A stretch of 51,325 bases of DNA from NCBI GenBank assembly GCA_045660125.1, contig JAZRDG010000097.1:1-51325 (forward strand), read 5' to 3'. The translations under genes and the position numbers were made by a program. The notes under the pieces were generated by a model that saw only the letters and a program-made list of their open reading frames with translations, did not search any database and was not told the origin of the DNA. Origin of the DNA: Eubacteriales bacterium. GTDB lineage: Bacteria > Bacillota > Clostridia > Oscillospirales > CAG-272. The stretch's first letter is position 1. Each line of letters starts with the position of its first letter. This document shows, one piece after another, positions 24,002 to 49,458 of this stretch.

Positions 24002-25126
24002 TCATTCGTAAGGATTGAATTTGATCAACTTATATTCATCGGTTACCACGTTGACGAGGAGCATATCAGTAAGGCCAAGGGCTGCCCCTCCCCACGAATC
24101 CTCATCCGGGTAGTAATTCATGGAGATGATCCCGACCCAATCACCACATGCTATGGAGGGCATGTTTCCATAGTAAAAATCTTCCACGTGGCATAACAGA
24201 TGGTTATCAGTTCCATCGGAGTTCACAATATAAACGTTTCCGCCAAATTCATCTTTGATGGTTGCACCGGCTTCCGTTTTGATATACCTTGGCTCATCCA
24301 ATTTCTTGTGGTAAAGGATCTTGTCTGCATAAAAGTAACAGCGTTCAACGTTCTGTGCGATCAGGATTTTTTCACCGGTGGAACGATTTGTTCTGTACAG
24401 ACAGGCCATACCGCCACCGGGCGCCAGTTGCCATGAGTAAACGTAATTCCCCCATTCACGTTGCAATATTGGGGAATAGTCGCGCTCATCTTCTCCGCTT
24501 AAATCTGTAGAGAAATATTCATCTCCGTGCTCCCAAATAATTCTGCCCGCTTCGATTTTGTCAATGGTCGCATACGGGTAATCGCAATCGATCACGTCGG
24601 TCTTTCCGCTCTGCGTATCCCATCTGTAAATGACAGCACCGATGATATTTCCGTCCGTTACCTCCAACTCGGAATAATAGAGATAGTAGTTATAGGAAAA
24701 AAGACGGCTCAAAACACCGTTTGAGGTGCGTAGCTCCTTGATCTCCATGCTGTCACCGTCATAGGAACGCAGACTGTATTGGCCGTCTATCTCCGTAACA
24801 TAGTACAAGATATTGCCTATTGCTGCATACCTAAATTCCGGCACTTTGAACTGACAATTTAAACTATGCTCACAAAACGGATCCTGGCAGACCCAGGTTG
24901 CCGTGCCCGACGGAATATGGTATTTGATCAATTTGGAGTTTGTCGACGCGTAAATGTAGTCTCCGCCGATATTTCCGGTTTCCATTTCACCGTATTCCGG
25001 CTCGCTTGACGTAGTTGTTTCGGACGGCTGCTTCGGAGGCTTCATGGGTCTGTCCGGCTGCTTTTCGCAGGAGCAAGCGAAAATCGCCAGCAAGGCAAGG
25101 ATCATGATGAAAAATCTGCGTTTCAT
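24002..25126 (-). CDS. Lipoprotein, beta-propeller-like (DUF5050-like) paralog a
   Basis: Lipobox signal MKRRFFIMILALLAIFAC|SC. SD GAAGGTG before the ATG at 25126. Conserved KYHIPSGTATWVCQDPFCEH and YNYYLYYSE motifs shared by paralogs a-f. Confidence 0.85.
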   Translation of the reverse strand: MKRRFFIMILALLAIFACSCEKQPDRPMKPPKQPSETTTSSEPEYGEMETGNIGGDYIYASTNSKLIKYHIPSGTATWVCQDPFCEHSLNCQFKVPEFRYAAIGNILYYVTEIDGQYSLRSYDGDSMEIKELRTSNGVLSRLFSYNYYLYYSELEVTDGNIIGAVIYRWDTQSGKTDVIDCDYPYATIDKIEAGRIIWEHGDEYFSTDLSGEDERDYSPILQREWGNYVYSWQLAPGGGMACLYRTNRSTGEKILIAQNVERCYFYADKILYHKKLDEPRYIKTEAGATIKDEFGGNVYIVNSDGTDNHLLCHVEDFYYGNMPSIACGDWVGIISMNYYPDEDSWGGAALGLTDMLLVNVVTDEYKLIKFNPYE

Positions 25127-25157
25127 AAAAGCACCTTCTTTCAAATTCGGGGTTTTA

Positions 25158-26306
25158 TCATTCGAAAGGATTGAATTTGATCAACTCATATTCATCGGTC
25201 ACTACGTTGACGATGAGCATATCGGTGGTGCAAAAGGCTGCCCCTCCCCACGTGTTCTCATGGGGATAGTAATTCTGTGAAGCCATTCCAACCCAATCAC
25301 CGCAAACCCACTGGTTGTTCCCTCTGGATGAAAATCCTCCATAGTAGAAATCTTCCACGTGGCACAACCGATGGCTATCGGTTCCGTCGGAGTTCATGAC
25401 GTAAACGTTTCCGCCCCATTCATCCTTGATGGTTGCACCGGCTTCCGTTTTGATATACCTCGGCTTATCCAATTTCTTGAAGTAAAGGACCTTGTCACCA
25501 TAAAAATAAAACCAGTCAATATTTTGCGCAATCATAATCTCTTTATTTGTTGAAAGGTCCTTTCTGTATAATCCAACAATGCGACCATTGCTATCGAGCG
25601 TCCATCTGTAAACATACTGCCCCCATTCCCGCTGCAATATTGGGGTATACTCGCGCTCATCTTCTCCGTTTAAGTCCGTAGAGAAATATTCATCTCCCTG
25701 CTCCCAAATAATTCTGCCCGCTTCGATTTTGTCAATGGTCGCATACGGATGACCGCAATCAATGATATCGGTCTTGCCGTTCTGCGTATCCCACCTGTAA
25801 ATGACGGTGTCCAACAAGTTTCCGTCTTCGAGTTTCGACTCGGAAAAATAGAGATAATAATTATAGGTAAAAAGACGGCTCAGGACACCGTTTGAGGTGC
25901 GTAGCTCCTCGACTTTCATGCTGTCACCGTCATAGGAACGCAAGCTCCATCGGTTGTCTGTTTTATTGGCGTAATATATTATGTTTCCCATTGCTGCATA
26001 ACCGAAAGGTGATACCGCGAACGGACAGTGCATCGTATCATGCTCGCAAAACACGTCCTGACAGACCCACGTCGCCGTACCCGAGGGAATATGGTATTTG
26101 ATCAATATGTTGTTTACCGATACTCCGTATATATAATTCCCCCCGATATTTCCGGTTTCCATTTCTCCGTATTCCGGCTCGCTTGACGTAATTGTTTCGG
26201 ACGGCTGCTTCGGGGGCTTCATGGGTCTGTCCGGCTGCTTCTGCTCGCAGGAGCAAGCGAAAATCGCCAGCAAGGCAAGGATCATAAGTAAAAATCTCTG
26301 CTTCAT
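25158..26306 (-). CDS. Lipoprotein, DUF5050-like paralog b
   Basis: Lipobox MKQRFLLMILALLAIFAC|SC. Collinear with paralog a along its whole length. Confidence 0.85.
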   Translation of the reverse strand: MKQRFLLMILALLAIFACSCEQKQPDRPMKPPKQPSETITSSEPEYGEMETGNIGGNYIYGVSVNNILIKYHIPSGTATWVCQDVFCEHDTMHCPFAVSPFGYAAMGNIIYYANKTDNRWSLRSYDGDSMKVEELRTSNGVLSRLFTYNYYLYFSESKLEDGNLLDTVIYRWDTQNGKTDIIDCGHPYATIDKIEAGRIIWEQGDEYFSTDLNGEDEREYTPILQREWGQYVYRWTLDSNGRIVGLYRKDLSTNKEIMIAQNIDWFYFYGDKVLYFKKLDKPRYIKTEAGATIKDEWGGNVYVMNSDGTDSHRLCHVEDFYYGGFSSRGNNQWVCGDWVGMASQNYYPHENTWGGAAFCTTDMLIVNVVTDEYELIKFNPFE

Positions 26307-26333: not shown

Positions 26334-26354
26334 AGGTGGATCTTCCGCATTCGG
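26334..26354 (-). promoter_or_regulatory. Conserved upstream motif CCGAaTGCGGAAGATcC (copy 1 of 3)
   Basis: 28-48 nt upstream of the paralog b ATG. The same 17-mer core occurs at 30560-30579 and, inverted, at 31298-31316. Confidence 0.35.
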
Positions 26355-26385: not shown

Positions 26386-27300
26386 TTATGATTGCTGCCC
26401 AAACACGTAGAGGTAATAATCCTCCAAGGTGGGGCTTGCAGGCTTTGCATCGGCAAAGGGCTGCGTGTCGGACAGGATACGCAGCGTGACCGCCTGCTCT
26501 GCCGTATCGGATTTGGCAATGCCCGTGACCGTGAACTTGTTTTGCATTGCGGACACCTCGCTCTCGGGCGCGTCGGTTGTCCAGACCTTATCCGCGATCT
26601 GATGCAAAAGCTCTTGCTGGGGCGCGATGCAAAGCACCTCGCCTTTGCGCAAAAGAATGATCTCCTTTGCGATAAACTCCACGTCGGACACCACGTGCGT
26701 GGCAATGATCACGATCTTGTTGAGCGCAATGCGCGAGATGTAGTTACGCACGGCAATGCGCTGCTTGGGGTCAAGTCCTGCGGTGGGCTCGTCTAAGATC
26801 AGGATCTTGGGGTCACCCAGCACGGCTTGCGCCAAGGCAAGACGCTGCTTCATGCCGCCCGAAAGCGTGCTGATCCTGCGGTGAGATACGTCGGACAGCT
26901 CCACCGCCTGCAAAACGCCGTCGATCTGCGCCTTGATCAATGCCTTGCGCTGCTCTCGTGGCAAATCGTCACCGAGGTTTTTGAGCGTGGCAATATACCA
27001 CAAAAATTCCTCCAAGGTGAAATTGCCGTACATACCGGGATACTGCGGCATAAAGCCTAACAGCCCGCGGAAACGCTTGCCCATTGCGGCAATGCTTTCC
27101 ACCTCTCCGTTCTCTCCGGAAAACATGATTGTGCCCGCATCCGCCTTGAGATTGCCCGTGAGAATATTCATCAGCGTGGTCTTTCCCGAGCCGTTGGGAC
27201 CCAGCAGCGCATACACGCCGGGGGTAAGGCTGGCGGAAAAATCGATCAGCGCACGGGTCTTTCCGTATGATTTACTTACGTTTTGAAATGCAAGGATCAC
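26386..27300 (-). CDS. ABC transporter ATP-binding protein (ABC-2/DrrA-like), module 1
   Basis: Walker A GPNGSGKTT, signature LSGGMKQRLALAQAVL, Walker B ILILDEP. The GTG start follows the permease TAA directly, with SD GGAGG 8 nt upstream. Confidence 0.9.
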   Translation of the reverse strand: MILAFQNVSKSYGKTRALIDFSASLTPGVYALLGPNGSGKTTLMNILTGNLKADAGTIMFSGENGEVESIAAMGKRFRGLLGFMPQYPGMYGNFTLEEFLWYIATLKNLGDDLPREQRKALIKAQIDGVLQAVELSDVSHRRISTLSGGMKQRLALAQAVLGDPKILILDEPTAGLDPKQRIAVRNYISRIALNKIVIIATHVVSDVEFIAKEIILLRKGEVLCIAPQQELLHQIADKVWTTDAPESEVSAMQNKFTVTGIAKSDTAEQAVTLRILSDTQPFADAKPASPTLEDYYLYVFGQQS

Positions 27301-29406
27301 TTAAACGACCTCCTTGTTTTGATTTTGATGAAGAATTGCAAGCCCGATGCCGAGCAGCAAGAAAACAATACCTACAGCACCCGCCTTGAGCCAGCCCTCA
27401 TTCATGCCGTCAAGCAGGAATGCGTTGCCGTCCAAAAACGTTGTCAATCGAAAATGCTGCAACGCGTCAACGCCCATGCCGTAAATTACCTGCGGCAGCT
27501 GTATGACCGCAATCAGGATCACGAGCGAGAGATACGACACCTTGACAGGCGCGGTCACGTGGCACGCAAGCACGCATAAAAAGATGCAGGTGACGTAGCG
27601 AATGGCGAGGATCAGCACAACGTATTGCCACAACCTCAGATCGGTGGGCGCGTTTTTATAAACTTCAAGGCTGATCAGCGTGGCGTTTGCGTCCTCAAAG
27701 GTGGAGGACAGCACAACGGGAAGCAGCTGCATAAACGTAAACACAACAAAGAATGCGGTAGTCAGCAGCGTGCTTACAAGCAGCTTTGCGCGCAGCGTGT
27801 CTTTTCGTCCGCGCACCGTGGTGGGCAAAATGCCCGAGAACTTGGAGGAGTACTCCACCGCTACAAGGAACGTGGCAACCATTAAGATCGCCAAGAACAG
27901 CAGCACGTCATCTCCCATTTGGTACAGGCGCATCCAGCCCGTGTCGTAAAGCAGCGTCAAGCCCTCAAGTCCGCGCTCGCTTTGGTACGCGCACGCCTGC
28001 GATACCCTTGCCAAGGGCATCTCGTGCAGGCAGGCGTAATAATATTCGGTCTCGATCTGTATCATATCAAGCCCTTCGGGCAGCATATCGGGCGTTTCGT
28101 TGCGGTATTTGTAGTAGTTTCGATACCCATCCGATACTCGCTCTGCCTCGGCATCAAGATACGCCCAGCGCTGCGCGTCATCCAAGGGCGCAAGATCCTG
28201 CACGTAATCGTAATAGATCTGATCCGACTTGCTTGTGTATTCCTTGTAATGCATCACCGCACTTGCCGCAGATGCGACCAACAAAAGCGCAACGGTGAGC
28301 ACCACGAAGCGGTTTTTGAGTATTTTTTTGAACTCCCAGCCAAGCAGCGCAGTGCCCGCGCCCACAGACGCACGCGTGCCTGCCTTGTGGCGTTCTTTGG
28401 CGTTGAACCGAAATCGCGCCAGACACAGGTGCAGCAGCACGGTCAAGCCCATGCAGACAAGGGAAAGCACGGCACACAGCACAAAAATGGCAACCAGTAC
28501 GGGCACGGGCTTGCCCAGCACGCGCACGCATTGGTACTTTGCAAGGAAGGTGGCAGCATCGGGCGCCGCAATCAGATTGCAATGGTCAAAAATCACGTCA
28601 CTGTTGAGATATTGGCGGTCGTTGACCACAATATTGACCGCATAGACCAGCACCGAGAGCACCAAGGCGACCAAGCGATTGCCCAGCGCGTAGGTCATAA
28701 AGCCGACAAGCGCACACACAGCAACCGTCATACAGGTGCGCACCGCGAACAAAAGCAGCACGGATTGCCAGACGCGCAAGGAATAGGGTGCCGCGATAAA
28801 TGCAAAAAAGCTTTGCACGTATTCGCCAAGCCCCACAAAGGCGTAAGGGGTCTCGGCAGCCCGCGCACCAAGCAGCATGCCGCACATGGAAATGCCTGCG
28901 AACAAGACGTTCAAGGCAACTGCGCACAGCAGCATGGCGCATATCTTGCTGAGAATGTATTTGAGTCTGCCGTCAGCCGTTGCATACAGGATGGGCTGCA
29001 TGCCGGTTTTGCCGTCCACGCTGAACAGCTGCACAGAGAGGAAGACGACGCAGATCAAAAGCAGCGGATTTGCCGCGTTGAACGAAAGATAGGTATCCCA
29101 TCCGCTGACGGGCTGCTCTGCAAGCTCAAGATCCTTCAGATCGGTATAAATTTCAATGACATCTTCAAAATAGAGCGTCGCATAGCTGTCCTCGGAGTTG
29201 TAAAGGCTTTGCTGATACTGCCGCTTGGCATTGGAGATCACGGCGGAGATCTTTTTCTCGTATTGCCGTGTCTGCTGCGACTCGGGTGCCTTGGATGCCT
29301 GATTATAGGCAAGTCCGCCCGTCACAAGCAGCAATATAAGCACGATTGCCACCGTCAGCTTGGACAGGCTGATTTTTCTGAGTTCAAATAATAGTTGTTT
29401 CATCAT
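27301..29406 (-). CDS. Fused double-TMD ABC-2-like permease (701 aa), module 1
   Basis: Two halves, each opening with a TM followed by a hydrophilic loop of 70-150 aa, then multiple helices. The ATG overlaps the lipoprotein c stop (ATGA). The ATPase follows directly. Confidence 0.8.
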   Translation of the reverse strand: MMKQLLFELRKISLSKLTVAIVLILLLVTGGLAYNQASKAPESQQTRQYEKKISAVISNAKRQYQQSLYNSEDSYATLYFEDVIEIYTDLKDLELAEQPVSGWDTYLSFNAANPLLLICVVFLSVQLFSVDGKTGMQPILYATADGRLKYILSKICAMLLCAVALNVLFAGISMCGMLLGARAAETPYAFVGLGEYVQSFFAFIAAPYSLRVWQSVLLLFAVRTCMTVAVCALVGFMTYALGNRLVALVLSVLVYAVNIVVNDRQYLNSDVIFDHCNLIAAPDAATFLAKYQCVRVLGKPVPVLVAIFVLCAVLSLVCMGLTVLLHLCLARFRFNAKERHKAGTRASVGAGTALLGWEFKKILKNRFVVLTVALLLVASAASAVMHYKEYTSKSDQIYYDYVQDLAPLDDAQRWAYLDAEAERVSDGYRNYYKYRNETPDMLPEGLDMIQIETEYYYACLHEMPLARVSQACAYQSERGLEGLTLLYDTGWMRLYQMGDDVLLFLAILMVATFLVAVEYSSKFSGILPTTVRGRKDTLRAKLLVSTLLTTAFFVVFTFMQLLPVVLSSTFEDANATLISLEVYKNAPTDLRLWQYVVLILAIRYVTCIFLCVLACHVTAPVKVSYLSLVILIAVIQLPQVIYGMGVDALQHFRLTTFLDGNAFLLDGMNEGWLKAGAVGIVFLLLGIGLAILHQNQNKEVV

Positions 29407-30533
29407 TCATATTGATTAAATTTAATAAGCTTATATTCACCCGTGATCACGTTGACGAAAAGCGTATCGGCTAAACTGTAATTCACTTGCCCGTACGTAT
29501 CCAAATAATAATTCTGGGATTGGAACCCCACCCAGTCTCCGCAGACCCACTCGTTATTTCTTGCCGATGACGTTCCCGCATAATAAAAATCATCCACGTG
29601 GCATAACAGCCGGTTTTCGGTTCCGTCGGAGTTCATGATGTAAACGTTCCCACCGTATTCATCTTTGATTTTTTTGCCGGTTTCGGTATCTATGATTCTT
29701 GGAGTCTGCAGTTTTTTGAAGTAAAGAACCTTATCTCCGTAAAAGAAAAAGAACGCAATATCCCGTTCGAGCAGGATCTCTTTATTGGTGGTGAGGTCTT
29801 TTCTGTACAGCGCAGCAAATTTCGTTCCGTCGAATACCCATCTGTAAACGTATTTTCCCCATTCGCGCTGATACGTTTGGTTATATTCCCGCTCATCGTC
29901 TCCATCCAAATTTGTTGAAAACAACGTATCTCCCTGTTTCCAAACGATCCTTCCTGCTTGAATTTTTTCTATTTTAGCACCGGGATAACCGCAGTCAATG
30001 GTCTCGGTCTTACCGCTCTGCGTATCCCACCTGTAAATGACGGTGTCACTCAAGTTACCGTCTACAAGCTTCGACTCGGAAAAATAGAGATAATAATTAT
30101 ACGAAAAAAGGCGATTCAGGACACCGTTTGAGGTGCGCAGCTCCTCGGTTTTCATGCTGTCACCGTCATAAGAGCGTAAATGGAATTGTTCATCGATCCG
30201 AACTGTGTAATACAGCATATTCCCGATCGCTGCCAAATTGTGTCCACCTGCGAGGAAGGGGCATTCCATATTGATGTTGTGGTTGCAAAACGGATCCGGA
30301 CATACAAAAGATGCCGTGCCGGTCGGAATATGGTACTTGACAAGAATACGGGCATCTATCATCCTGTAAACGTAATCTCCCGCAACCGTTCCGGTCTCAA
30401 CCTCTCCGTATTCCGGCTCACTTGACGTGATTTTTTCAAACGTCGGTCGCTCGGGGCGTGGCTGCTTTTGCTCACAGGAGCACAGCAGGATAGCAAATAT
30501 TATAAGAGTAATCAATAAAAATTTGTGTTTCAT
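29403..30533 (-). CDS. Lipoprotein, DUF5050-like paralog c (first gene of module 1)
   Basis: Lipobox MKHKFLLITLIIFAILLC|SC. Motifs KYHIPTGTASFVCPDPFCNH and YNYYLYFSE. Confidence 0.85.
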   Translation of the reverse strand: MKHKFLLITLIIFAILLCSCEQKQPRPERPTFEKITSSEPEYGEVETGTVAGDYVYRMIDARILVKYHIPTGTASFVCPDPFCNHNINMECPFLAGGHNLAAIGNMLYYTVRIDEQFHLRSYDGDSMKTEELRTSNGVLNRLFSYNYYLYFSESKLVDGNLSDTVIYRWDTQSGKTETIDCGYPGAKIEKIQAGRIVWKQGDTLFSTNLDGDDEREYNQTYQREWGKYVYRWVFDGTKFAALYRKDLTTNKEILLERDIAFFFFYGDKVLYFKKLQTPRIIDTETGKKIKDEYGGNVYIMNSDGTENRLLCHVDDFYYAGTSSARNNEWVCGDWVGFQSQNYYLDTYGQVNYSLADTLFVNVITGEYKLIKFNQYE

Positions 30534-30559: not shown

Positions 30560-30579
30560 AGGTGAATCTTCCGCAACCG
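30560..30579 (-). promoter_or_regulatory. Conserved upstream motif CGGtTGCGGAAGATTC (copy 2 of 3)
   Basis: 27-46 nt upstream of the paralog c ATG, in the same orientation and at the same distance as copy 1. Confidence 0.35.
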
Positions 30580-30592: not shown

Positions 30593-30672
30593 TCAGTTAC
30601 GGTCAGCTACTGTCAGTTATTTTCACTTTCCGTTAGTCGCTGTTGGTTGTCATTAGTTGCTGTTAGTTGGAC
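30593..30672. repeat. Degenerate tandem repeat with exact 10-bp phasing (8 units)
   Basis: Units: TCAGTTACGG, TCAGCTACTG, TCAGTTATTT, TCACTTTCCG, TTAGTCGCTG, TTGGTTGTCA, TTAGTTGCTG, TTAGTTGGAC. The last unit overlaps the stop of the 200-aa gene. Confidence 0.7.
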
Positions 30673-31265
30673 ATTTGAATGAATCCATCGTCACCGGTCA
30701 CCCAAGCATAACTTACTGTTTTCTCCATTATGGCAGTAAAGTAAATTCTTTCTCTTGCACTACCTGGGATCTCTAATTCCTCAAGGACAATGGCACAGCT
30801 GCCGTTGTCGTTACGGCGTCCGATAATCGCGGTTGCCATACCATGTGTAGGTACGAAAGTAACCCTTTTCGTCATGCTGACACTGTGCTCGCAGTAATTG
30901 TCAACTGTTCCGACAAAATACGCTGCATCCGTTTCAAATACGTTGTTTGTATCATGATAATAATTGCGCACGTCATCACCATAATACTCTTCGCCCTCTC
31001 CTGTAAGCGGATTGACTCCATAAATTGATGCAAAGCATATACCCACCGAGAAATTAGCCCCGCTGGCTTTTTGCAGCTCTGCATAAGCCGTGTAGCGCAG
31101 AGTCTGATTGTTTGCATTACTTACCGCAATGGAGAAAAGGCTGTTGCCGTTTTCATCCCAATACGTATTTCCTCCAAGAATGTAAGCATGAGAGCCCACG
31201 CAATAAAAAGAGGCAAGCATAATCATAGCAAGCGTGCAAAGCACGATTCTTTTCGCAGTTTTCAT
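30663..31265 (-). CDS. Secreted hypothetical protein (200 aa)
   Basis: Signal peptide MKTAKRIVLCTLAMIMLASFYCVGSHA. SD AAGGAGAA. Visibly AT-richer than its neighbours. No family recognised. Confidence 0.65.
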   Translation of the reverse strand: MKTAKRIVLCTLAMIMLASFYCVGSHAYILGGNTYWDENGNSLFSIAVSNANNQTLRYTAYAELQKASGANFSVGICFASIYGVNPLTGEGEEYYGDDVRNYYHDTNNVFETDAAYFVGTVDNYCEHSVSMTKRVTFVPTHGMATAIIGRRNDNGSCAIVLEELEIPGSARERIYFTAIMEKTVSYAWVTGDDGFIQMSN

Positions 31266-31297: not shown

Positions 31298-31316
31298 CCG
31301 ATTGCGGAAGATTCTG
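31298..31316 (+). promoter_or_regulatory. Conserved motif CCGAtTGCGGAAGATTC (copy 3 of 3, inverted relative to its gene)
   Basis: 33-51 nt upstream of the ATG of the 200-aa gene, but on the opposite strand compared with copies 1 and 2. Confidence 0.3.
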
Positions 31317-31421
31317 TGAGAGCTGACACCAAATAATGGCTGAAAACTGCGTTTTGTTACAGTTTTTGGAGAATGTTTACAAAATATGCACAAATTCCGT
31401 GTGGTTTGCCTTAATCCCCGT

Positions 31422-41727: not shown

Positions 41728-42311
41728 ACGTAGATCTCCTCCTTTTCCAAAAGGATGCGCAGCTCGCGCTTGATCTGTGCCAATTCCTTGCTCACCAAGG
41801 ACTCACTGCAGGAAAGCCGCTTGGCGATCTGCGGAATGGTCAGCGCGAAGAAATAACGGGATACGAACACGTACAGACGGCGGTCGGTCGTGCCGTCCAA
41901 ATACTCCGTGATGATCCTGCCAATGGCTGCCGCCTGCACCTGACGCGCAAGGTCGCTCCCATCTGGCAAAAATTCCTGCACCTCCTCCAGCGGCACGCAC
42001 ATGTTGGAGGGCACGCGCTTTTGTCTGCCGTCGCGCTCGTAGCGATCCAGACTCAGATTGCGCGTGATCTTTGCCAAAAACGCGCGGAACACGCGCGGAC
42101 GCTCGGGTGGAATGGTATTCCAGGTCTTGAGATACGTATCCTGCAAGCATTCCTCTGCATCCTGCTCGTTGGACAAAATGCTATACGCCACGGTGTGCAG
42201 ATATTCACAGTATTTTTTGTCGGTCTCTTCGATGGCGCGTTCTTCCCTTGCAAAGTACAGATCAATGATCTGCTCGTCCGAAAGACACGCCTCGCGTGTT
42301 ATCTTTCCCAT
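41724..42311 (-). CDS. ECF-like sigma-70 family sigma factor (pair 3)
   Basis: SD GGAGAT. Region 2 DAEECLQDTYLKTWNTIPP, region 4 LTIPQIAKRLSCSESLVSKELAQIKRELR. Confidence 0.85.
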   Translation of the reverse strand: MGKITREACLSDEQIIDLYFAREERAIEETDKKYCEYLHTVAYSILSNEQDAEECLQDTYLKTWNTIPPERPRVFRAFLAKITRNLSLDRYERDGRQKRVPSNMCVPLEEVQEFLPDGSDLARQVQAAAIGRIITEYLDGTTDRRLYVFVSRYFFALTIPQIAKRLSCSESLVSKELAQIKRELRILLEKEEIYV

Positions 42312-42345: not shown

Positions 42346-42379
42346 ACCTATATAGACGGCATTTTTGCAAAACCTTGTA
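42346..42379 (-). promoter_or_regulatory. Shared promoter-proximal motif (copy 3 of 4)
   Basis: Minus strand reads TACAAGGTTTTGCAAAAATGCCGTCTATATAGGT and ends 34 nt upstream of the sigma 3 ATG. It matches the plus-strand copy at 42513-42546 at 30 of 34 positions. Confidence 0.6.
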
Positions 42380-42412
42380 AAAAACAATTCCATTTATTTT
42401 ATTATACTGTTT

Positions 42413-42441: not shown

Positions 42442-42512
42442 GAACAACAAGCGTATATCGATGGCTCACTCCGTTATCTGCGGGAGGCATCCTTCTCTTT
42501 ACAACCTTCTTT

Positions 42513-42546
42513 TACAAGCTTTGGCAAAAATGCCGTCTATATATAT
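42513..42546 (+). promoter_or_regulatory. Shared promoter-proximal motif (copy 4 of 4) in front of the plus-strand surface-protein/ABC operon
   Basis: TACAAGCTTTGGCAAAAATGCCGTCTATATATAT, ending 29 nt upstream of the ATG at 42576. A CGTC-type -10 is typical of ECF promoters. Confidence 0.6.
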
Positions 42547-42575: not shown

Positions 42576-43706
42576 ATGGAAAACGAAAAAAGACGCATTG
42601 CTTTGCCTTGGTGGGTGCCGTACAGCATCCCCGTGGTCATCTTTGCCGCGATCATGATATTTATCATTGCAGATAAGCCGGAATACACGGTCACGTTTTC
42701 TCCGGGCTACGATGGCGGCAGAAGCAAAACCGAGACGGTGGAGAAAAAGGACACTCTTGCCGTGCCCGATGATATCTATCGCCCGGGCTATACGTTTGAC
42801 GGCTGGTGGTATGAGGACGAGAGCGGCTGGCGGCTTTGGGATTTTGAAAATGACAAGGTCTACGAGGATATCACGCTGACTGCGCGTTGGGAGCACGTTA
42901 CGTATACAATGACCTTAGATGCCAACGGCGGCGAGTGCGATATTACGGAATACACCGTGCAGAGTGGAGTGCCATATGAGATGCCTGCTCCTACGCGTAA
43001 AGGGTATACCTTTGCGGGTTGGTATTGCGGTTGTCAGAACATGACCAAAGGCATATATCCGTACATTGATGATGTACCTGTCAAAGCAAGATGGGTCACG
43101 TATCCGCTTGGCATGTCGGTTCACATTGGCAGATTCGAGCAGGACGGCAACCTTGATAACGGACCCGAAGAGATTGAATGGTATGTGGTGGATTACAAGG
43201 ATGGAAAATACTATTTACTCAGCAAATACATGCTGTTTGAAATGCGATATTCGAAAAATTACCCGGATGGAGATGAAAATTATGAAGATACAAATTGGGA
43301 GACCTCGCTCATCCGTGCGTATCTGAACGACGAATTCCTTGACACGGCATTCACAGAGCAGGAGCAGCAGTATATCGTTCCAACTGCTTTGCCGGAAGGC
43401 GTCACCGATCGCGTTTTTCTGTTAAGCAAAGATGACGTTGAGCAAATCGTAGTCGAAGGACTTCTTACTATGGGCATTCCGAGTAATTATTTGATTGCGC
43501 AAGGTGTCGAAACAAGAAATGGGCATTGTGATCTCATGGAGCCCGAAACCGTATACAACACAACCTGGTATTACATGCGAGACAAAGTAGAAGTAGACGG
43601 ATGGGCTTATTGTTACTACAGTTCCATTTCCTTAGTAAGACCGGTTATGTGGATTGATGAGAGTTATTTGATCGGAACAAGCCCCGAGAAAGGAGAGACA
43701 CCATGA
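42576..43706 (+). CDS. TM-anchored surface protein: two InlB-B/Flg_new-like repeats plus a DUF6273-like C-terminal domain (copy 1)
   Basis: SD AAAGGAG 6 nt before the ATG at 42576. TM WWVPYSIPVVIFAAIMIFIIA. Repeats (YRPGYTFDGWWYEDE..., TRKGYTFAGWYCG...). C-terminal domain IEWYVVDYKDGKYYLLSKYML...WETSLIRAYLNDEF. Confidence 0.75.
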   Translation: MENEKRRIALPWWVPYSIPVVIFAAIMIFIIADKPEYTVTFSPGYDGGRSKTETVEKKDTLAVPDDIYRPGYTFDGWWYEDESGWRLWDFENDKVYEDITLTARWEHVTYTMTLDANGGECDITEYTVQSGVPYEMPAPTRKGYTFAGWYCGCQNMTKGIYPYIDDVPVKARWVTYPLGMSVHIGRFEQDGNLDNGPEEIEWYVVDYKDGKYYLLSKYMLFEMRYSKNYPDGDENYEDTNWETSLIRAYLNDEFLDTAFTEQEQQYIVPTALPEGVTDRVFLLSKDDVEQIVVEGLLTMGIPSNYLIAQGVETRNGHCDLMEPETVYNTTWYYMRDKVEVDGWAYCYYSSISLVRPVMWIDESYLIGTSPEKGETP

Positions 43707-44773
43707 AAAAGCTCCCCTGGTGGGTGCCGTACAGCGTCCCCGTGATCATATTTGCCGCGATCATGATATTTATCATTGCAGATAAACCCGAATACACGGT
43801 CACATTCTCTCCGGGTTACGACGGTGGCAGAAGCAAAACCGAGACGGTGGAGAAAAAGGACACAGTTTCTGTGCCCGATGAAATTTACCGCCCAGGCTAC
43901 ATCTTTGCCGGCTGGTGGTACAAGGATGAGGACGGCTGGAGGTTGTGGGATTTTGAGAACGACAAGGTGCTCGAGGACATCACGTTGACTGCAAGGTGGG
44001 AGCACGTTACGTATACAATGACCTTAGATGCCAATGGCGGCGAGTGCGATATGACCGAATATAAAGCTTACCCGAACGAAAAACTCAAGCTGCCCGTACC
44101 CACAAGAGAGGGCTACACTTTTGCGGGATGGTTTATCGGTGAATACGATGCCGACAAAGGTATTTACGTTTGGCCCGGCGATTGCTATGCCAAAGCCAAA
44201 TGGGTGACCTACCCGCTTGGTATGACGGTTACGATCGGTCGCTTTGAGCAGGATAACAATCTTGAAAACGGGCCTGAAGAGATCGAATGGTACGTCATTG
44301 ATTACCAGGACGGGAAATATTTTTTAGTCAGCAAATACCTCTTGACCTACCACAGATATGCCGAGAGTAATTATGACAGGACATGGGAAACTTCCTTGCT
44401 TCGCGCCTATCTGAACGGTGAGTTTTATGATACGGCATTCACCGAACAGGAAAAGCAATTCATCACGCCCACCGTATTGCCCGAGGGCGTGACCGACCGC
44501 GTATTCTCTCTTTCAAAAAAAGACGTGGAGGATGTCGTCATCGATTGGAAAATGGTTATGGGCATCGCGACTGACTACGCTGTTTCGCAGGGTTTGAGGG
44601 TGTATAACACTGCCTTCAACCCCATGCACGAGAACAGGGTGTCCTATGACATCGCATGGTACTCCATACGTGGAGCTTCCGTTCTGTGTGGTGCTTTTGG
44701 CAACACATTCGGCAAAAATGGAGTTCGCCCTGCTATGTGGATCGATGAGAGTTATGTAACCGGTAACGAATGA
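43703..44773 (+). CDS. TM-anchored surface protein, Flg_new-like repeats plus a DUF6273-like domain (copy 2)
   Basis: ATGA overlap with copy 1, SD AAAGGAGAG. Collinear paralog of copy 1; the first ~110 aa are nearly identical. Confidence 0.75.
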   Translation: MKKLPWWVPYSVPVIIFAAIMIFIIADKPEYTVTFSPGYDGGRSKTETVEKKDTVSVPDEIYRPGYIFAGWWYKDEDGWRLWDFENDKVLEDITLTARWEHVTYTMTLDANGGECDMTEYKAYPNEKLKLPVPTREGYTFAGWFIGEYDADKGIYVWPGDCYAKAKWVTYPLGMTVTIGRFEQDNNLENGPEEIEWYVIDYQDGKYFLVSKYLLTYHRYAESNYDRTWETSLLRAYLNGEFYDTAFTEQEKQFITPTVLPEGVTDRVFSLSKKDVEDVVIDWKMVMGIATDYAVSQGLRVYNTAFNPMHENRVSYDIAWYSIRGASVLCGAFGNTFGKNGVRPAMWIDESYVTGNE

Positions 44774-44799: not shown

Positions 44800-44958
44800 A
44801 TGAAAAAACAAGATCTTTTCAGATGCATTGGTCAGATAGATGACCACATATTGGCGAGGTATTTTGCAATAGATAAGAAGTACTTGCGTCGGAGTAAACG
44901 GCGTGTATTTGGTATTGCACGACACAGAAAACATTGTTGTAAGAGTAACGATAAATAA
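44800..44958 (+). CDS. 52-codon ORF encoding only the N-terminal module of the anti-sigma-like family (mini-protein or gene remnant)
   Basis: SD GAAGGAGA 8 nt upstream. MKKQDLFRCIGQIDDHILARYFAIDKKYLRRSKRRVFGIARHRKHCCKSNDK aligns with MNKELLFDAVGEIDDGILDRYHRMDIRLARKHARKK... No TM follows. It is below the ORF-track length cutoff. Confidence 0.45.
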   Translation: MKKQDLFRCIGQIDDHILARYFAIDKKYLRRSKRRVFGIARHRKHCCKSNDK

Positions 44959-44985: not shown

Positions 44986-46188
44986 ATGAGCTTTAAGAGA
45001 CTTGCTTGCTTTACCTTAGCTGCATTGCTGTTATGCAGTATTTGTGTGTCGTATGCGGCTTGCAACGACAAAGATAAACACGAGATCAACGAGCTGCACC
45101 AAACCAAGGTAGTCAAAAACGACCTTGCCGAATACGGTAACTTTGTCTGGGCGGAATCGAGCAGAATTTATCGCTTTAACCGAAAGACCGAGACCTTTTA
45201 TACCGCCTGCATCGATCCCGAATGCGACGGCAAATGCCCTGTGGATTGCGTCTTCAGTTACTTTGCGGGCGTGCACGATCAAAAGCTGTATTTTTTAGGC
45301 TGGCAGCAGTTTACGAACATCACTATGCTTGCCTATCAGGACGTTGTGACCGGCGAGACCCACGTGCTCAAGACCATGAGCGACACCGCAGACCCCAATG
45401 CCTACTTGACCTTTATTGACGGCGATTGGTGGTACTACAAATGCATGCTGCTCAAGGAGGGCGGAGACGCCACCAAGCCCACGGATTACGAGCCCTATAT
45501 TTGCAGAATTTCGCTTGACGGCTCCAAGGACGAAACCGTTTTCAAGCTTGCAGATACCGAATTTTTATATATGGCAGCGGACGGCAAGGTGGTGACCGCG
45601 CACACGGATAAGCTGTACGTAACCGACGCGGAGACCAAGCAAAAGGACGAGCTTTTCAATTTTACGCAAAACGGATATAAGTCCGTCATGTCCAATGCGC
45701 AATATTTTGACGGCAAGATGTATTTCACCGCCTTAAGTCCCAACATGGCAACCGTGCAATATACGGGCGGACAGCAGCGCATGTCTTTCCTCGTGCGCAT
45801 TGACCTTGACACCCGACAGGCAGAACGAGTGGTGGAAGGACCCGTGGAAAACTTTACCGTGACCGAGCAAGGTATCTATTACGTGCCTTTCAAGATCCGT
45901 TATCATTACGTACCGGATGATTACGAAAGAAACCCCAATAAGGTGACCTACTGCTTGTTTGAAGAGTCCATCTATTTGTGTAACCACGACGGAAGTAACG
46001 CCAAGGTCGTGTACACCAACGACAAGCTTGACTTTACGTTCTATTTCACGGTCATCGACAACACGCTGTACGGCTGGCTGTCCGATTACAATGAGCAGGA
46101 AAAAAGATTTTCCTCCTCGGGCTATTTCGGATCGGTCAACTTTGACACGGGGCGCATCGTACACGCCGTAAAGCCGGATAAGGAATGA
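44986..46188 (+). CDS. Lipoprotein, DUF5050-like distant paralog g (first gene of module 2)
   Basis: Lipobox LLLCSICVSYAAC|N. SD AAAGGAA. Motif FYTACIDPECDGKCPVDCVF at the position equivalent to VCPDPFCxH in paralogs a-f. Confidence 0.8.
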   Translation: MSFKRLACFTLAALLLCSICVSYAACNDKDKHEINELHQTKVVKNDLAEYGNFVWAESSRIYRFNRKTETFYTACIDPECDGKCPVDCVFSYFAGVHDQKLYFLGWQQFTNITMLAYQDVVTGETHVLKTMSDTADPNAYLTFIDGDWWYYKCMLLKEGGDATKPTDYEPYICRISLDGSKDETVFKLADTEFLYMAADGKVVTAHTDKLYVTDAETKQKDELFNFTQNGYKSVMSNAQYFDGKMYFTALSPNMATVQYTGGQQRMSFLVRIDLDTRQAERVVEGPVENFTVTEQGIYYVPFKIRYHYVPDDYERNPNKVTYCLFEESIYLCNHDGSNAKVVYTNDKLDFTFYFTVIDNTLYGWLSDYNEQEKRFSSSGYFGSVNFDTGRIVHAVKPDKE

Positions 46189-48551
46189 TGCGCCTATATA
46201 AATCCGAGCTGCGAAAGCTATGCAGCTCGCGGACGGTATGCATTGTTTTCATCGTGCTGCTGTGTATCAATTTTCTGCTTACGGCATATCTGTCAAAGCC
46301 CTTGCCCCACGAGGACGCCAAGAGGCAGGCATTCGAGGACTATTTGACCGATCCCGAGAAGACCGCGCAATATTACAAGGAACTGCAAATGCTTGCATCC
46401 TTGAACGAGCGCGAGGAGCAGCCGAATTTTCCGTACTCCTACTACGGCTCGCCCGAGTACGATGATTTTCTGATCCTGCGACTGATGTATAAGCGTGCTG
46501 AGTATCTTGAAAGCGGTTATACCAAGCAGGTCGACAGCATCATTTCGATGAGCGAGCGTAAGCTGGACGATATGTACAGCTTTTACTACGACGACGGCGA
46601 CTATGAGATCAAGGAACAAAAAGCGATCCTTGAGAGATACCGATCGATCAAGCAAAACGTGCAGCTTCCGCGCGAATACGCGCACGGCTACGACACCTAC
46701 ATCCAAAACAATACGGTCTCAGTCTTTGTGCTGCTGTGCGTATTGGTCTTTGCGTCGTACCTGTTTTTGGACGAGCGCGCCTCGGGCTTTGAGAGCATTT
46801 TACGCTGTGCCAAGCACGGGCGCGGCAGGACGTTCGTTGCCAAAACCCTTGCTCTGCTGACTTGTACGCTCTTTTTCGTGGTGGTCTTTTCGCTGACTAC
46901 CTTTGCTGCGGTGGGGTTGATGCAAGGCTACTCGGATATCACCAGCCCCATCCAAGTCTTTGAGGACTTCGCCAAGGTGCCTTACGAGGTGTCGATCCTT
47001 GGCTATATGCTGCTGCAAATGCTTGTGCGCGTGGTGGCGTTTGCGCTGATTGCCGCCTTTGTATCTTGCCTTGCGTGCCTGCGATTGCCCTACGTTGCCT
47101 CGATCGGCGGGGGGATTGCGCTATACGGTGTCAACGTGCTGATCAGTACGCGCACCTACATGGGCACAACGCCTGCGGTGCGCTATCTCAATCCTGCCGC
47201 CATGATCGAAGCCTGCGCATTGCTTGGATTTGACCGATACCTTTCATTGTTCGGCTTGCCCGTTTCTTACGTTGTAACGGCACTGCTGCTCTCGGTCATG
47301 GCAACGGTAGCGCTGTTTGTAACGGGCGGGATTCTGTTCTGCCAAAACGTGCGCGTGCCAAGCCTGCGGAAAAGCTTCAAGATGCCTAAGATTCTTGTTC
47401 CCAATCTTCCCGTGGCAAGAAAAAAGCACGGAAAAGTGCACACTTTTGCTTGGTATGAGCTCAAAAAGAACCGCTTTTTACTGCTTCTGGCTGCAATATG
47501 CGTGCTTTTGGCTATCAAAAGTGCGTACGTGGACAAGACTGTGGGTACGATGGAGAGCTATGACCAAGCCATTTATTACGAGTACGTGACCACCGTGCAG
47601 CCCATGGAAAGCGACGAGCGCACCGCATACATGAGGGCAGAGCGGGAGCGCATTGATACGATTCTGTTTGCCGCAGAATCCAATCGAAACGCATTCTCCA
47701 ATGACCAAATGACGGCAGAGGAATATTTTGCCTATTGCGAGCAGCTGACCGACGCAAGGGCACGCAACGGTGTGTTTGCCCGTGTGGAGAACTACGTAAA
47801 TTATATTGAGCGCAAGAATGCCGAAACGGGCGGTGACGCCAAAATCATTTACAGCATCGGCTACGAGCGGCTTTACAACTTGCCCTCCGACGCATTTGTG
47901 TGCGCTGCGCTGATGCTCTTATGCGTGGGTACGTTTGCGGTAGAATACGCGTCGCAATCCTCAAAGGGCGGCTTTTCGCAGATCTTGCGTGCCACCAAGC
48001 ACGGCAGAAAGCACACCTTTGCTTGCAAGATCATCACCTATGGCGCACTCGGCGCGTGCATCTCGGTCGCCTTTCGTGCTGCAACGCTGTTGATCGTGTC
48101 TCGCAATTACGTGCTGCCCGATTTGGATGCCGCGCTGTATTCTATCCAAGCCTTTTCCGATGTGACGTCGGACGTCACGATCGGGCAATACCTGCTGCTT
48201 GACCTTGGGCTGCAGATCCTGCTTGGCGCGATCTTTGCCGTGGTAGTCTGCACGCTCTCCTGCTTTTGCAAGCGTCCGCTTGCCACAATCGTTGCGAGCG
48301 TATTTGCCATCGGCTTGCCCGAGGTGCTTGCGAGCACCGTGCTGCCGCAGTTCGCGGCGTTCAGCATTCTCTCGCTTTCCTCACCGCTGCGCGTGACCGC
48401 CCTTTCAGCGCAAAAGCAGCTGTCCGGCGGTGATTTCACATATTTTTGGCGTGCTTTGACGCTGTATCTTTTGTTGGGCGCGGCACTCGTGCTGCTTGCA
48501 GGGCGCAAATTCTGCAAATCTTATTACAATGGGGGCTGCCATGAAGCTTGA
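46185..48551 (+). CDS. Fused double-TMD ABC-2-like permease (788 aa), module 2
   Basis: ATGA overlap with lipoprotein g. Same two-half architecture as 27301..29406: a TM plus a long hydrophilic loop, then helices, twice. Confidence 0.8.
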   Translation: MMRLYKSELRKLCSSRTVCIVFIVLLCINFLLTAYLSKPLPHEDAKRQAFEDYLTDPEKTAQYYKELQMLASLNEREEQPNFPYSYYGSPEYDDFLILRLMYKRAEYLESGYTKQVDSIISMSERKLDDMYSFYYDDGDYEIKEQKAILERYRSIKQNVQLPREYAHGYDTYIQNNTVSVFVLLCVLVFASYLFLDERASGFESILRCAKHGRGRTFVAKTLALLTCTLFFVVVFSLTTFAAVGLMQGYSDITSPIQVFEDFAKVPYEVSILGYMLLQMLVRVVAFALIAAFVSCLACLRLPYVASIGGGIALYGVNVLISTRTYMGTTPAVRYLNPAAMIEACALLGFDRYLSLFGLPVSYVVTALLLSVMATVALFVTGGILFCQNVRVPSLRKSFKMPKILVPNLPVARKKHGKVHTFAWYELKKNRFLLLLAAICVLLAIKSAYVDKTVGTMESYDQAIYYEYVTTVQPMESDERTAYMRAERERIDTILFAAESNRNAFSNDQMTAEEYFAYCEQLTDARARNGVFARVENYVNYIERKNAETGGDAKIIYSIGYERLYNLPSDAFVCAALMLLCVGTFAVEYASQSSKGGFSQILRATKHGRKHTFACKIITYGALGACISVAFRAATLLIVSRNYVLPDLDAALYSIQAFSDVTSDVTIGQYLLLDLGLQILLGAIFAVVVCTLSCFCKRPLATIVASVFAIGLPEVLASTVLPQFAAFSILSLSSPLRVTALSAQKQLSGGDFTYFWRALTLYLLLGAALVLLAGRKFCKSYYNGGCHEA

Positions 48552-49458
48552 ACTTAAACATATCAGTAAATCATACGGTGCTGTTCGTGCGCTCTCGGAT
48601 TTTTCCGCAGAGCTGACGCCCGGCATTTACGCGCTGCTGGGGCCCAACGGCTCGGGCAAGACCACGCTGATGCACATTCTGACCGACAACTTAAAAGCGG
48701 ACACAGGAGAGATCTTGTATGCGGATGATAACTGTGAGAAGCAAAACGTAAAGGCTATGGGCGAGCAATTCCGCGAGAAGATCGGTTTTATGCCGCAGTA
48801 CCCGGGCATGTACCCCAATTTCACAGCCAGGCAGTTTTTGCAGTACGTTGCCGCACTCAAGGGTGTTGGCGAGAAAGAGAAAAAGCGCGCCAGAGACGCG
48901 AAAATCGACAGACAAATCACCGAGATTTTGGACGAATTGGAGCTTTCCGACGTGGCAACACGCAAGATCGGCACCTTTTCGGGCGGCATGAAGCAGCGCC
49001 TCGCCCTTGCGCAGGCTGTGCTGGGCGATCCCAAAATCTTGATTCTTGACGAGCCCACCGCAGGGCTTGACCCCAAGCAGCGTATCGCGGTGCGCAACTA
49101 CATCTCGCGCATCTCGCAGGACAAGATCGTCATCATCGCCACGCACGTGGTGTCCGACGTCGAATTTATCGCCAAGGAGATCATCATGCTCCGTAAGGGC
49201 GAGATCGTCAACATGGCAGCTCCGCACGTGCTGCTGCAGGAGCTTGCGGGCAAGGTGTGGGAGATCTGTGCAGAACAAGACCGGATTGTCGAGCTGCAAA
49301 ACGCCTTTGCGGTCACCAATATCGCAACCTCGGAAAAGCACGCGGGTAAGGTAGTGCTGCGCGTGCTGTCCGACATACAGCCGACAGCGGACGCGACTCC
49401 TCTTTCCCCCATGCTGGAAGACTATTATTTGTACACATTCGGCAAAAAAGAGCAATAA
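48541..49458 (+). CDS. ABC transporter ATP-binding protein (ABC-2/DrrA-like), module 2
   Basis: MKLELKHISKSYG..., Walker A GPNGSGKTT, LSGGMKQRLALAQAVL, ILILDEP. The start at 48541 overlaps the permease end by 11 nt. Close paralog of 26386..27300. Confidence 0.9.
   Translation: MKLELKHISKSYGAVRALSDFSAELTPGIYALLGPNGSGKTTLMHILTDNLKADTGEILYADDNCEKQNVKAMGEQFREKIGFMPQYPGMYPNFTARQFLQYVAALKGVGEKEKKRARDAKIDRQITEILDELELSDVATRKIGTFSGGMKQRLALAQAVLGDPKILILDEPTAGLDPKQRIAVRNYISRISQDKIVIIATHVVSDVEFIAKEIIMLRKGEIVNMAAPHVLLQELAGKVWEICAEQDRIVELQNAFAVTNIATSEKHAGKVVLRVLSDIQPTADATPLSPMLEDYYLYTFGKKEQ

Follow-up and report, generated by a model that had tools for sequence, protein, structure and literature searches.

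In the 51,325-nt contig JAZRDG010000097.1 from a Eubacteriales bacterium (hereafter the window, meaning this whole stretch of DNA), a cluster of genes at positions 24002–49458 encodes two modules, each composed of a β-propeller lipoprotein, a fused ABC-2 permease and an ATP-binding cassette (ABC) ATPase, together with three pairs of extracytoplasmic function (ECF)-type σ-factors and single-pass membrane partners. The present study supports the view that the lipoprotein and the pump form one conserved functional unit. Specifically, wherever upstream sequence is available (~16 loci), the transporter genes are immediately preceded by a lipoprotein gene, usually with a 4-nt overlap, and this adjacency, the strongest result obtained here, spans permease identities from 92% to ~20% and two gene orders. 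Our preferred reading, which we hold tentatively and at somewhat less than an even chance, is that the locus is a σ-controlled envelope module in which an outer-leaflet-clearing pump works with a propeller lipoprotein partner, and is not a nutrient importer.

Pfam and NCBIfam scans covered genes of the window, and the genomic contexts of lipoprotein and permease homologues, labeled L001–L023, were taken from metagenome-assembled genomes of uncultured Eubacteriales/Clostridia and annotated against the window proteins. A first-pass annotation made from the DNA letters had read the cluster as an accessory island for multiplexed surface sensing; it was largely correct as observation, with all of its open reading frame (ORF) coordinates holding, and its interpretation is partly supported.

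A lipoprotein–permease–ATPase unit recurs in unrelated neighborhoods

Module 1, on the minus strand, runs from lipoprotein c (29403–30533) through permease 1 (27301–29406) to ATPase 1 (26386–27300, 304 aa), and module 2, on the plus strand, runs from lipoprotein g (44986–46188) through permease 2 (46185–48551, 788 aa) to ATPase 2 (48538–49458). In both, the end of the lipoprotein gene overlaps the permease start by 4 nt; the permease 1 and ATPase 1 genes directly abut, and those of permease 2 and ATPase 2 overlap if ATPase 2 starts at ATG 48538. Both modules are complete, as first described, and the account of a 5′ remnant of a third permease (31422–31679, minus strand) also holds; the remnant is 86% identical to permease 1 residues 2–86.

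The three-gene association, on which the earlier interpretation leaned, is conserved across genomes. In close-relative loci, between one and five lipoprotein genes are followed by a permease of ~700 aa and an ATPase of 304 aa, in neighborhoods that are mutually unrelated (glycoside hydrolases, BipA, Spo0A, recombinase). With a superfamily profile, propeller lipoprotein genes were found directly 5′ of the transporter genes in L006, L015 and L016, and by hhalign the same holds for Ruminococcus callidus (L019); the permeases of these four loci are ~20% identical, and the order in L015, L016 and L019 is lipoprotein–ATPase–permease. No Pfam, NCBIfam, PDB-sequence or literature match places the lipoprotein and permease pair in a characterized system, and a literature search on DUF5050 or β-propeller lipoproteins with ABC transporters found none, in keeping with the earlier statement that no characterized transporter was known to pair a β-propeller lipoprotein with a fused double ABC-2 permease.

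These results bear on the possibility that nothing here is functionally coupled, the lipoproteins being an independent variable surface family beside an ordinary drug-efflux ABC-2 pump and the σ-factors regulating something else. In its favor, the σ adjacency is not conserved, and the lipoprotein subtype beside permease 1 varies by genome (c-, e- or f-like), for which reason strict pairing of one subtype with permease 1 was also rejected. However, stop/start overlaps of 4 nt join lipoprotein and transporter genes in >12 loci, the adjacency outlasts both divergence to ~20% permease identity and a change of gene order, each permease subfamily is accompanied by its own lipoprotein subfamily, including in loci with two pairs and one ATPase, and a promoter-like element is common to the σ genes and the modules. 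An uncoupled arrangement is already disfavored and, in our judgment, highly improbable.

In L010 (8844–16562), L013 (8832–16561) and L020 (8844–16571), two tandem lipoprotein–permease pairs, one permease 1-type and one permease 2-like, precede a single ATPase gene, so that one ATPase would have to serve two distinct fused permeases. Elsewhere, module arrays contain short pieces of permease and ATPase genes and a lipoprotein gene split in two (L021 4859–5020 and 11290–11454; L013 2531–3700), signs of frequent duplication and decay in module loci.

The lipoproteins are a divergent branch of DUF5050-type β-propellers

Besides c and g, the window encodes lipoproteins a (24002–25126; likely start ATG 25126, not TTG 25144), b (25158–26306), d (31695–32822), e (32852–33994) and f (34027–35196), all on the minus strand. 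Seven paralogues had been proposed. Six of them, a–f, share 47–73% mutual identity (73% between a and b), whereas g, which is DUF5050-like as a is, is only a remote relative of the set (hhalign probability 55%, E 1e-4) and has C.DP.C in common with it but not the full motif. The motifs themselves were borne out, since KYHIP.GT..VC.D..C.H and Y..YL are invariant in 40 family members. The lipoproteins begin with a hydrophobic helix, and S19-C20 (L/A-C-S-C) does not vary in 40 of 40 members; this putative lipobox Cys and the motif C-x-DP-x-C-x-H-x5-C are each at least 90% conserved across the superfamily. A strict lipobox pattern gave no match in the lipoproteins.

A model of lipoprotein c built from the 40-sequence alignment (predicted local distance difference test, pLDDT, 86) is a β-propeller, the fold first suggested, with its best template modeling (TM) score to 3s25 and the next to TolB. 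The C-x-DP-x-C-x-H-x5-C motif sits in a loop of this model, and we infer that it forms a zinc knuckle or a disulfide knot. No lipoprotein matched Pfam, NCBIfam or PDB sequences, and DUF5050 was not detected in any at E ≤ 0.01. The family profile, searched against 1.84 billion representatives, returned 422 clusters at E ≤ 1e-3, with relatives at E ≤ 1e-9, and 22 of 76 sampled relatives matched DUF5050 (best 1.6e-12). By these profile matches the window lipoproteins are a divergent DUF5050 branch with transitive homology, so that the DUF5050 check proposed earlier succeeds through relatives and not directly. Known DUF5050 propellers (PF16472; PDB 3S25, EUBREC_1955; TsgL of T7SSg, bioRxiv 10.1101/2024.01.30.577966) have the same fold. 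In contrast to them, the window proteins are not themselves matched by the Pfam model, are putatively lipidated, carry the C-x-DP-x-C-x-H-x5-C motif and are tied to ABC-2 genes.

The transporter resembles type V (ABC-2) exporters

Each permease consists of two homologous halves (E 7e-8 and 1e-9), both of which have a positively charged N-terminus, a transmembrane segment, a helical extracytoplasmic insert and then five transmembrane segments. Permease 2 is 24% identical to permease 1. Permease 1 has no Pfam, NCBIfam or PDB-sequence match above threshold; ABC2_membrane_4 is matched by 4 of 14 permease family members below its gathering score (best 4.6e-5) and weakly by permease 2 (1.3e-3), and a Ruminococcus relative matches ABC2_membrane_3 at 4e-7, just below cutoff. 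The sequence-profile match to PmtD is weak and not significant (E ~3). In fold searches with the permease model, the top matches are PmtD, Rv1217c and NosY, followed by ABCG and KpsM, all of them type V, at E 0.05–0.5. Both ATPases are ABC_tran proteins (1e-30), 64% identical to each other, and closest to the GldA, DrrA and lantibiotic-protection subfamilies at scores below cutoffs: the best NCBIfam match is GldA (171 vs. 403 bits cutoff), and the lantibiotic-protection model TIGR03740 is matched at 2e-38 (132 bits vs. cutoff 310). Modeling and fold comparison suggest that each module encodes a type V (ABC-2) exporter with two non-identical transmembrane domains in one chain and a separate ATPase. 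Membership of the BceAB-type/FtsX (type VII) group was rejected, as Pfam gives no FtsX match in either permease.

The FtsX question also touches a different kind of machine, in which the ABC-2 complex transports nothing and ATP hydrolysis moves the bound propeller lipoprotein so that it acts on wall, glycans or proteins, as in FtsEX or MacB. The sizeable helical extracytoplasmic inserts in both permease halves would suit such mechanotransmission, as would the obligate adjacency and translational coupling of the lipoprotein gene and the invariant Cys3His knuckle of the lipoprotein, a possible functional site. Characterized mechanotransmitters, however, to our knowledge all use the FtsX/MacB (type VII) fold and not the type V fold suggested here, and neither Pfam/NCBIfam nor fold searches detected a hydrolase-like domain in the lipoprotein. 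We rate this alternative as improbable.

The first-pass annotation knew of no characterized transporter that pairs a β-propeller lipoprotein with a fused double ABC-2 permease. The fused permease by itself is not unprecedented, because Rv1217c of Mycobacterium tuberculosis consists of two non-identical type V domains in one chain that work with a separate ATPase, Rv1218c, as a homodimer of nucleotide-binding domains (PDB 8K1M–8K1O; PMC11406275). Rv1217c ranks near the top in the fold search and aligns along the entire permease, but the match is weak (TM score 0.35–0.45, E 0.07), there is no detectable sequence similarity, and the mycobacterial system has neither an accessory lipoprotein nor ECF control. 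The inserts after the first transmembrane segment, ~70 and ~110 aa, are also much larger in the window permeases than in Rv1217c.

σ-Factors and their single-pass partners

Three σ/partner pairs lie on the minus strand of the cluster: putative anti-σ sensor 1 (35276–36796) with σ1 (36793–37380), sensor 2 (37596–39395) with σ2 (39392–39979), and sensor 3 (40195–41727) with σ3 (41724–42311). A fourth pair occupies 18338–20166. All four σ-factors of the window (184–195 aa) contain Sigma70_r2 and Sigma70_r4_2, and the NCBIfam model TIGR02937 (sigma70-ECF) is passed at 64 bits against a cutoff of 42.9. The junction is an ATGA stop/start overlap in four of four pairs, and one transmembrane segment is predicted for every partner, so that the tandem arrangement and the partner topology first described both stand.

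Two other statements about the partners stand in part. The conserved cytoplasmic N-terminal module is present in partners 1–3, which are 59–64% identical over their N-terminal ~60 aa, but BLAST does not find it in the partner of the fourth pair (18338–19615). Similarly, the ectodomains had been called divergent: that of sensor 2 (540 aa) belongs to no family and is unrelated to the other two, whereas sensors 1 and 3 share 64% identity from end to end. The suggested BspA-type leucine-rich-repeat (LRR) ectodomains give a signal, but LRR_5 in partners 1 and 3 stays below threshold (16.5 bits vs. cutoff 27.7) and LRR proteins of the PDB match at E 0.16–0.47; no sensor ectodomain has a Pfam, NCBIfam or PDB-sequence match above threshold. 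On sequence identity, the three pairs are a recent local triplication with only two ectodomain types, which speaks against the multiplexed sensing originally envisaged.

The N-terminal 73 aa of the partners have no Pfam match at E ≤ 10, and the full-length proteins have none at E ≤ 0.01. Among known anti-σ domains, zf-HC2, RskA, RsgI_N, DUF4179 and DUF4367 were not detected by Pfam in the partner N-termini, the H-x3-C-x2-C motif is absent, and a word-index homologue search with the 61-aa module gave no candidates. The partner of the fourth pair has a different N-terminus (…FCYIDPKMIEAA…), and that pair has no copy of the promoter-like element described below.

The module also occurs on its own. 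A 52-aa mini-ORF with a good ribosome-binding site (44800–44958, plus strand) encodes only the sensor N-terminal module (MKKQDLFRCIGQIDDHILARYFAIDKK...), without transmembrane segment or ectodomain, and another stand-alone copy lies within the lipoprotein array of L021 (2655–2867; E 1e-22 to the module profile). Such ORFs could encode soluble mini anti-σ factors or could be products of decay.

A promoter-like element links the σ genes to the modules

An ECF-type promoter-like element in fixed register precedes each of the three σ genes, at 37424–37465 (AGCGGTGC-N18-GGTCTATA), 40013–40055 and 42351–42392 (TTTTTTAC-N18-CGTCTATA), all on the minus strand, and the same element faces, divergently, the plus-strand operon of Flg_new/DUF6273 proteins, lipoprotein g and permease 2 (42500–42541, plus strand; TCTTTTAC-N18-CGTCTATA). 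Its upstream box is an 8-mer, either class A (TTTTTTAC-like) or class B (AGCGTGGC-like), separated by 18 nt from NGTCTWTA; the short form is [TTTTAC or GCGTG]-N18-NGTCTWTA. A pattern scan found 10 copies in 262 kb of nonredundant sequence, compared with 0.13 in shuffles, and all 10 lie 30–130 nt upstream of, and point toward, a σ gene or a module operon; further copies, beyond the 10 counted, are found in L020 and L022/L023. Copies also stand ahead of the leading gene of module operons in L009, L010, L011, L013, L014, L020 and L022/L023, none of which has a local σ-factor of this family. The σ3/Flg_new arrangement is kept in L001, where, as in the window, the σ3-type gene and the divergent operon share their −35-like class. 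The downstream box before σ1–σ3 and the L001 σ gene is of CGTC type, with housekeeping-type sites just upstream, such as TTGTCA-17-TG-TAAAAT at 37479–37507 (minus strand) ahead of σ1. In orthologous intergenic regions the end boxes are better conserved than the spacer.

We infer that the element is the target promoter of this σ family. A window-type σ/sensor pair adjoins modules only in one closely related contig (L001/L012), as a single pair between two modules, so adjacency of σ/sensor pairs to the modules is not conserved. Adjacency taken alone would refute a fixed σ–module association; the shared element, however, links them. The proposal that the σ-factors drive modules and surface proteins thus stands as far as the shared fixed-register element is concerned and falls as far as adjacency is concerned, and the element supports a regulatory link of the σ-factors to both.

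Each pair had also been credited with its own promoter and terminator. The promoter-like element is indeed present before all three σ genes, and an intrinsic-terminator-like hairpin with a T tract follows sensor 3 (40157–40186, minus strand). The hairpin after sensor 1 (35230–35253), however, lacks a T tract and lies ~30 nt from lipoprotein f; thus pair 1 has no convincing terminator of its own. For want of the T tract this hairpin is probably leaky, and read-through from the σ1 operon into the lipoprotein genes is likely, as it is in L001, where σ, sensor, lipoproteins, permease and ATPase form one co-directional run with no strong terminator. The corresponding genes of the window probably form one such run too. 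The plus-strand operon ends at a terminator-like hairpin (49467–49494).

The hairpin after sensor 1 is one copy of a near-identical GC-rich hairpin (CAGCCGCGGCTTTCGCCGCGGCTG) that follows sensor genes and lipoprotein a (23901–23924, 35230–35253 and 40160–40183, with a degenerate copy near 37560). Three copies are followed by a near-identical housekeeping-type promoter block (CCACTTGTCAAAAT...TG.TAAAAT), and hairpin and block together resemble an intergenic repeat unit carried along by the tandem duplications. At the permease-remnant junction, a class B-like site (31389–31432, plus strand; CCGTGTGG...CCCGTCTATA) runs counter to the genes around it. The L009 alignment is collinear, not inverted, and ~3 chance 8-mer matches are expected in the window; on these grounds an inverted promoter (inverton) was rejected, and the site is more likely chance or rearrangement debris.

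Control of the module in other lineages and the question of self-immunity

Other lineages place the module, by the annotation of its neighbors, under ECF, agr-type or two-component control. L006 has an ECF σ-factor with a DUF4367 partner and L008 an OmpR-type two-component system, and in L016 and L019 the regulators are agrB, an AgrD-like peptide, a LytTR regulator and an AgrC-like kinase, with a small secreted protein. In detail, L019 (5499–13537) and L016 (4166–11803) contain, in order, agrB, an AgrD-like propeptide (…CGSASAWGMYQPKEPKKL), the secreted protein (117–137 aa, Gly/Ser/Thr/Tyr-rich, two Cys), lipoprotein, ATPase and fused permease; the LytTR regulator and AgrC-like kinase genes lie downstream in L019 and upstream, on the opposite strand, in L016. 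Regulators of these kinds commonly accompany systems for peptide resistance or bacteriocins.

Between lipoprotein c and the permease remnant, the window encodes a secreted 200-aa protein of no known family, p200 (30663–31265, minus strand), which recurs beside the module in L009, L013 and L021 (three copies in the last). It is the centerpiece of the main rival to the outer-leaflet pump, namely producer self-immunity, according to which p200 and the 117–137-aa secreted proteins are antagonistic, the pump and lipoproteins protect the producer or export the toxin, and the extra lipoproteins are orphan immunity proteins directed at variants that competitors produce. The recurrence of p200 homologues next to the module fits this explanation, as do the position of the module in L016/L019 between agrB, the AgrD-like peptide and the secreted protein on one side and LytTR and the AgrC-like kinase on the other, the diverging paralogue arrays and gene fragments, which resemble orphan-immunity arrays, and the best fold match, PmtD, which according to PDB entry names belongs to an exporter of the cell's own peptide toxins. 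However, neither p200, which has no Pfam, NCBIfam or PDB-sequence match, nor the small secreted proteins match a toxin or bacteriocin family, the module occurs without a p200-like gene in L002, L004, L010, L011, L014 and L022, and candidate toxins are far fewer than lipoproteins. On balance we consider self-immunity unlikely.

In three genomes, conserved inverted motifs (TTGCGGAAGATTC) with an adjacent box (CTGAGAGCAGAC) lie on either side of the p200 gene: in the window at 30564–30579 (GAATCTTCCGCAACCG) and its partner arm 31299–31314, in L009 at 5722–5739/6406–6423 and in L013 at 8151–8181/8807–8844, p200 itself being 35–66% identical among the three. The two boxes are inverted separately and pairing would cross, so they are unlikely to form a simple RNA stem or to reflect a plain inversion. 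Some lipoprotein genes that have no p200 are likewise preceded by the B box (window 26338–26350, L004 9955–9966).

Surface proteins at the head of the permease 2 operon

As first noted, two membrane-anchored repeat proteins head the plus-strand operon (42576–43706, likely start ATG 42576 after a ribosome-binding site, and 43703–44773). Each contains two Flg_new repeats and DUF6273 and has one N-terminal transmembrane segment. Their position raises the idea of surface assembly or secretion, in which the pump would export or anchor a polymer or lipid-linked component in the manner of Wzm/Wzt, TarGH or GldAFG, or would aid display of the Flg_new/DUF6273 proteins and p200, with the lipoproteins as scaffolds. 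Flg_new/DUF6273 genes head the permease 2 operon in L001 also, GldA is the best NCBIfam match of the ATPase, the window contains, at 2.5–14 kb, a second ABC-2 system accompanied by ABC_transp_aux and giant Flg_new proteins, and an NAGPA surface protein is encoded next door. Yet the Flg_new link counts as one observation, because the window and L001 are close relatives; Flg_new, glycosyltransferase and polymer-synthesis genes are absent from most module loci; and the GldA score is far under its cutoff. Surface assembly has, in our estimate, only a small likelihood.

Comparison with characterized systems

Several systems share parts of this organization. In LanFEG and LanI (NisFEG/NisI, SpaFEG/SpaI), a membrane-active peptide is countered by an ABC-2 exporter together with a surface lipoprotein, both controlled by a dedicated envelope regulator. 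The window has the same exporter-plus-lipoprotein logic, and its ATPase matches the lantibiotic-protection model. However, LanI is not a β-propeller, LanE and LanG are separate proteins, and the ATPase remains below the family cutoff. Membership was rejected on these grounds, the permease being fused and the lipoprotein a propeller, and no lantibiotic genes were present among the window genes scanned.

Pmt is reportedly agr-controlled, and the Ruminococcus/Oscillospiraceae relatives of the module are similarly located inside agr-like loci. For one transmembrane domain, the staphylococcal PmtABCD/PmtCD (PDB 6XJH, 9Q2N) gives the best match in both the sequence-profile and the fold search; by its PDB entry names, it exports phenol-soluble modulins, which are amphipathic peptides. 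Its permease subunits, unlike those of the window, are separate ~250-aa proteins with no lipoprotein partner, and the matches are not significant (E ~3 in sequence, 0.05 in fold). NosDFYL matures nitrous oxide reductase in Gram-negative bacteria. NosDFY–NosL (PDB 7O0Y, 7ZNQ) is likewise a type V ABC-2 complex with extracytoplasmic partners that include a lipoprotein, and NosY is among the best fold matches; however, its partner NosD is a β-helix, not a propeller, and the window has no nos genes. With these defining features absent, membership was rejected.

On the regulatory side, Bacillus subtilis sigY-yxlCDEFG resembles L001, and probably the window, in having an ECF σ-factor, a membrane partner and an ABC-2 transporter in one direction, but has neither lipoproteins nor a fused permease. 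Some ECF groups, such as ECF258, have been noted as “associated to ABC transporters” (PMC7826278); ECF258 partners contain DUF4179, which was not detected in those of the window. The SigI/RsgI systems of cellulolytic clostridia (PMC6582324, PMC6056542) also comprise several σ/anti-σ pairs whose partners have a short cytoplasmic N-terminal domain, one transmembrane segment and divergent ectodomains. They differ in the SigI-type C-terminal domain, in contrast to the canonical Sigma70_r4_2 found here, and in targeting cellulosome genes; the canonical region 4 and the lack of an RsgI_N match led us to reject membership.

Proposed function

In the σ-controlled envelope module that we favor, the single-pass partners would act as putative anti-σ sensors, and a surface signal would free the σ-factor, which would activate its own gene and induce both the modules and the Flg_new/DUF6273 proteins of the surface. 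The pump would clear a membrane-associated amphipathic compound from the outer leaflet; candidates are antimicrobial peptides, bacteriocins, lipids and amphiphiles from the host or from bile. The propeller lipoprotein, putatively docked on the helical extracytoplasmic inserts of the permease, would capture, shield or accept the compound, and arrays of spare lipoprotein paralogues would give alternative specificities. The scheme follows the logic of LanFEG plus LanI and of Pmt. Inducible envelope defense or export is favored over import or polymer synthesis because of the type V exporter-like domains, the drug- and lantibiotic-protection relatives of the ATPase, the kinds of regulators and the fast turnover of the locus. 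A module inside agr-like or two-component loci beside small secreted proteins is typical of peptide export or immunity systems, and the change in copy number, the permease remnant, the truncated lipoproteins, the permease and ATPase fragments and the N-module mini-ORFs point to a rapid turnover that fits antagonism loci.

Several observations weigh against this scheme. No substrate, toxin or biosynthetic gene was identified for the module. The permease model is of medium confidence (pLDDT 69), with weak fold matches (E ~0.05), and the N-terminal module of the partners matches no known anti-σ domain. The search pattern that defines the element was refined in part on copies that it afterward counts, so that its role as a promoter is putative. 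The spacer is unusually conserved and partly palindromic, and the element could be an operator for another regulator. L002 and L004 have no copy upstream of their modules, and the minus-strand lipoprotein run of the window (f to a) has no copy of its own and so depends on the presumed read-through.

A bolder version goes beyond the favored scheme, and we think it doubtful: the module may be a new type V ABC machine in which a lipidated DUF5050-type propeller with a Cys3His knuckle is an obligate extracytoplasmic subunit and the paralogue arrays are interchangeable specificity adaptors for one pump, the whole being wired to ECF σ-factors through an undescribed anti-σ N-module that also exists as free-standing mini-proteins. 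Such adaptor arrays would be an exporter-side counterpart of the swappable substrate-binding proteins of importers.

Composition and flanks of the locus

The findings do not bear out the term accessory island for the cluster. No integrase or transposase was found among the window genes scanned by Pfam, a scan that did not extend to tRNAs. The flanks are MetH/MTHFR on one side and a MATE gene on the other, and the MATE neighbor is kept in another genome (L002). The lipoprotein and Flg_new/DUF6273 genes have ~45–48% GC (window 24000–46000), compared with ~52–54% for the permease, ATPase, σ and sensor genes and 54–59% for the flanks, so that low GC is tied to individual genes and not to one block. 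A mobile accessory island was rejected on these three grounds.

Upstream of the MTHFR/MetH genes, window 2517–14084 holds the second ABC-2 system, which is unrelated to the modules. It comprises an ABC2_membrane_3/4 permease (3718–4464), two ABC_transp_aux (GldG-like) proteins (4483–7670) and two proteins of >1000 aa, one with a Flg_new repeat. Beside the fourth ECF pair (18338–20166) lie genes for a PAP2 membrane phosphatase (20799–21488) and a 728-aa surface protein (21614–23800) with an NAGPA (phosphodiester glycosidase) domain and a C-terminal transmembrane anchor.

Implications

Multiplexed sensing, σ adjacency and uniqueness of the fused permease were overstated in the earlier interpretation, while, as far as sequence comparison goes, the module and its regulatory link hold. 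What is new is the module that pairs a DUF5050-type lipoprotein with an ABC-2 pump, for which no characterized match was found; a fused permease was already known from Rv1217c. Most gut Clostridia (Eubacteriales, Oscillospiraceae, Ruminococcus) are uncultured, and little is known of how their envelope defense and surface systems work. Our analysis defines in them a conserved, unannotated three-part unit of propeller lipoprotein, fused ABC-2 permease and ATPase, the first two lacking a Pfam or NCBIfam assignment, together with a cis-element usable for regulon prediction. Should the lipoprotein turn out to be a genuine subunit or a specificity adaptor, the repertoire of accessory proteins for type V ABC exporters would be widened, and the unit would offer a handle on peptide or bile resistance, or on interbacterial antagonism, in gut anaerobes.

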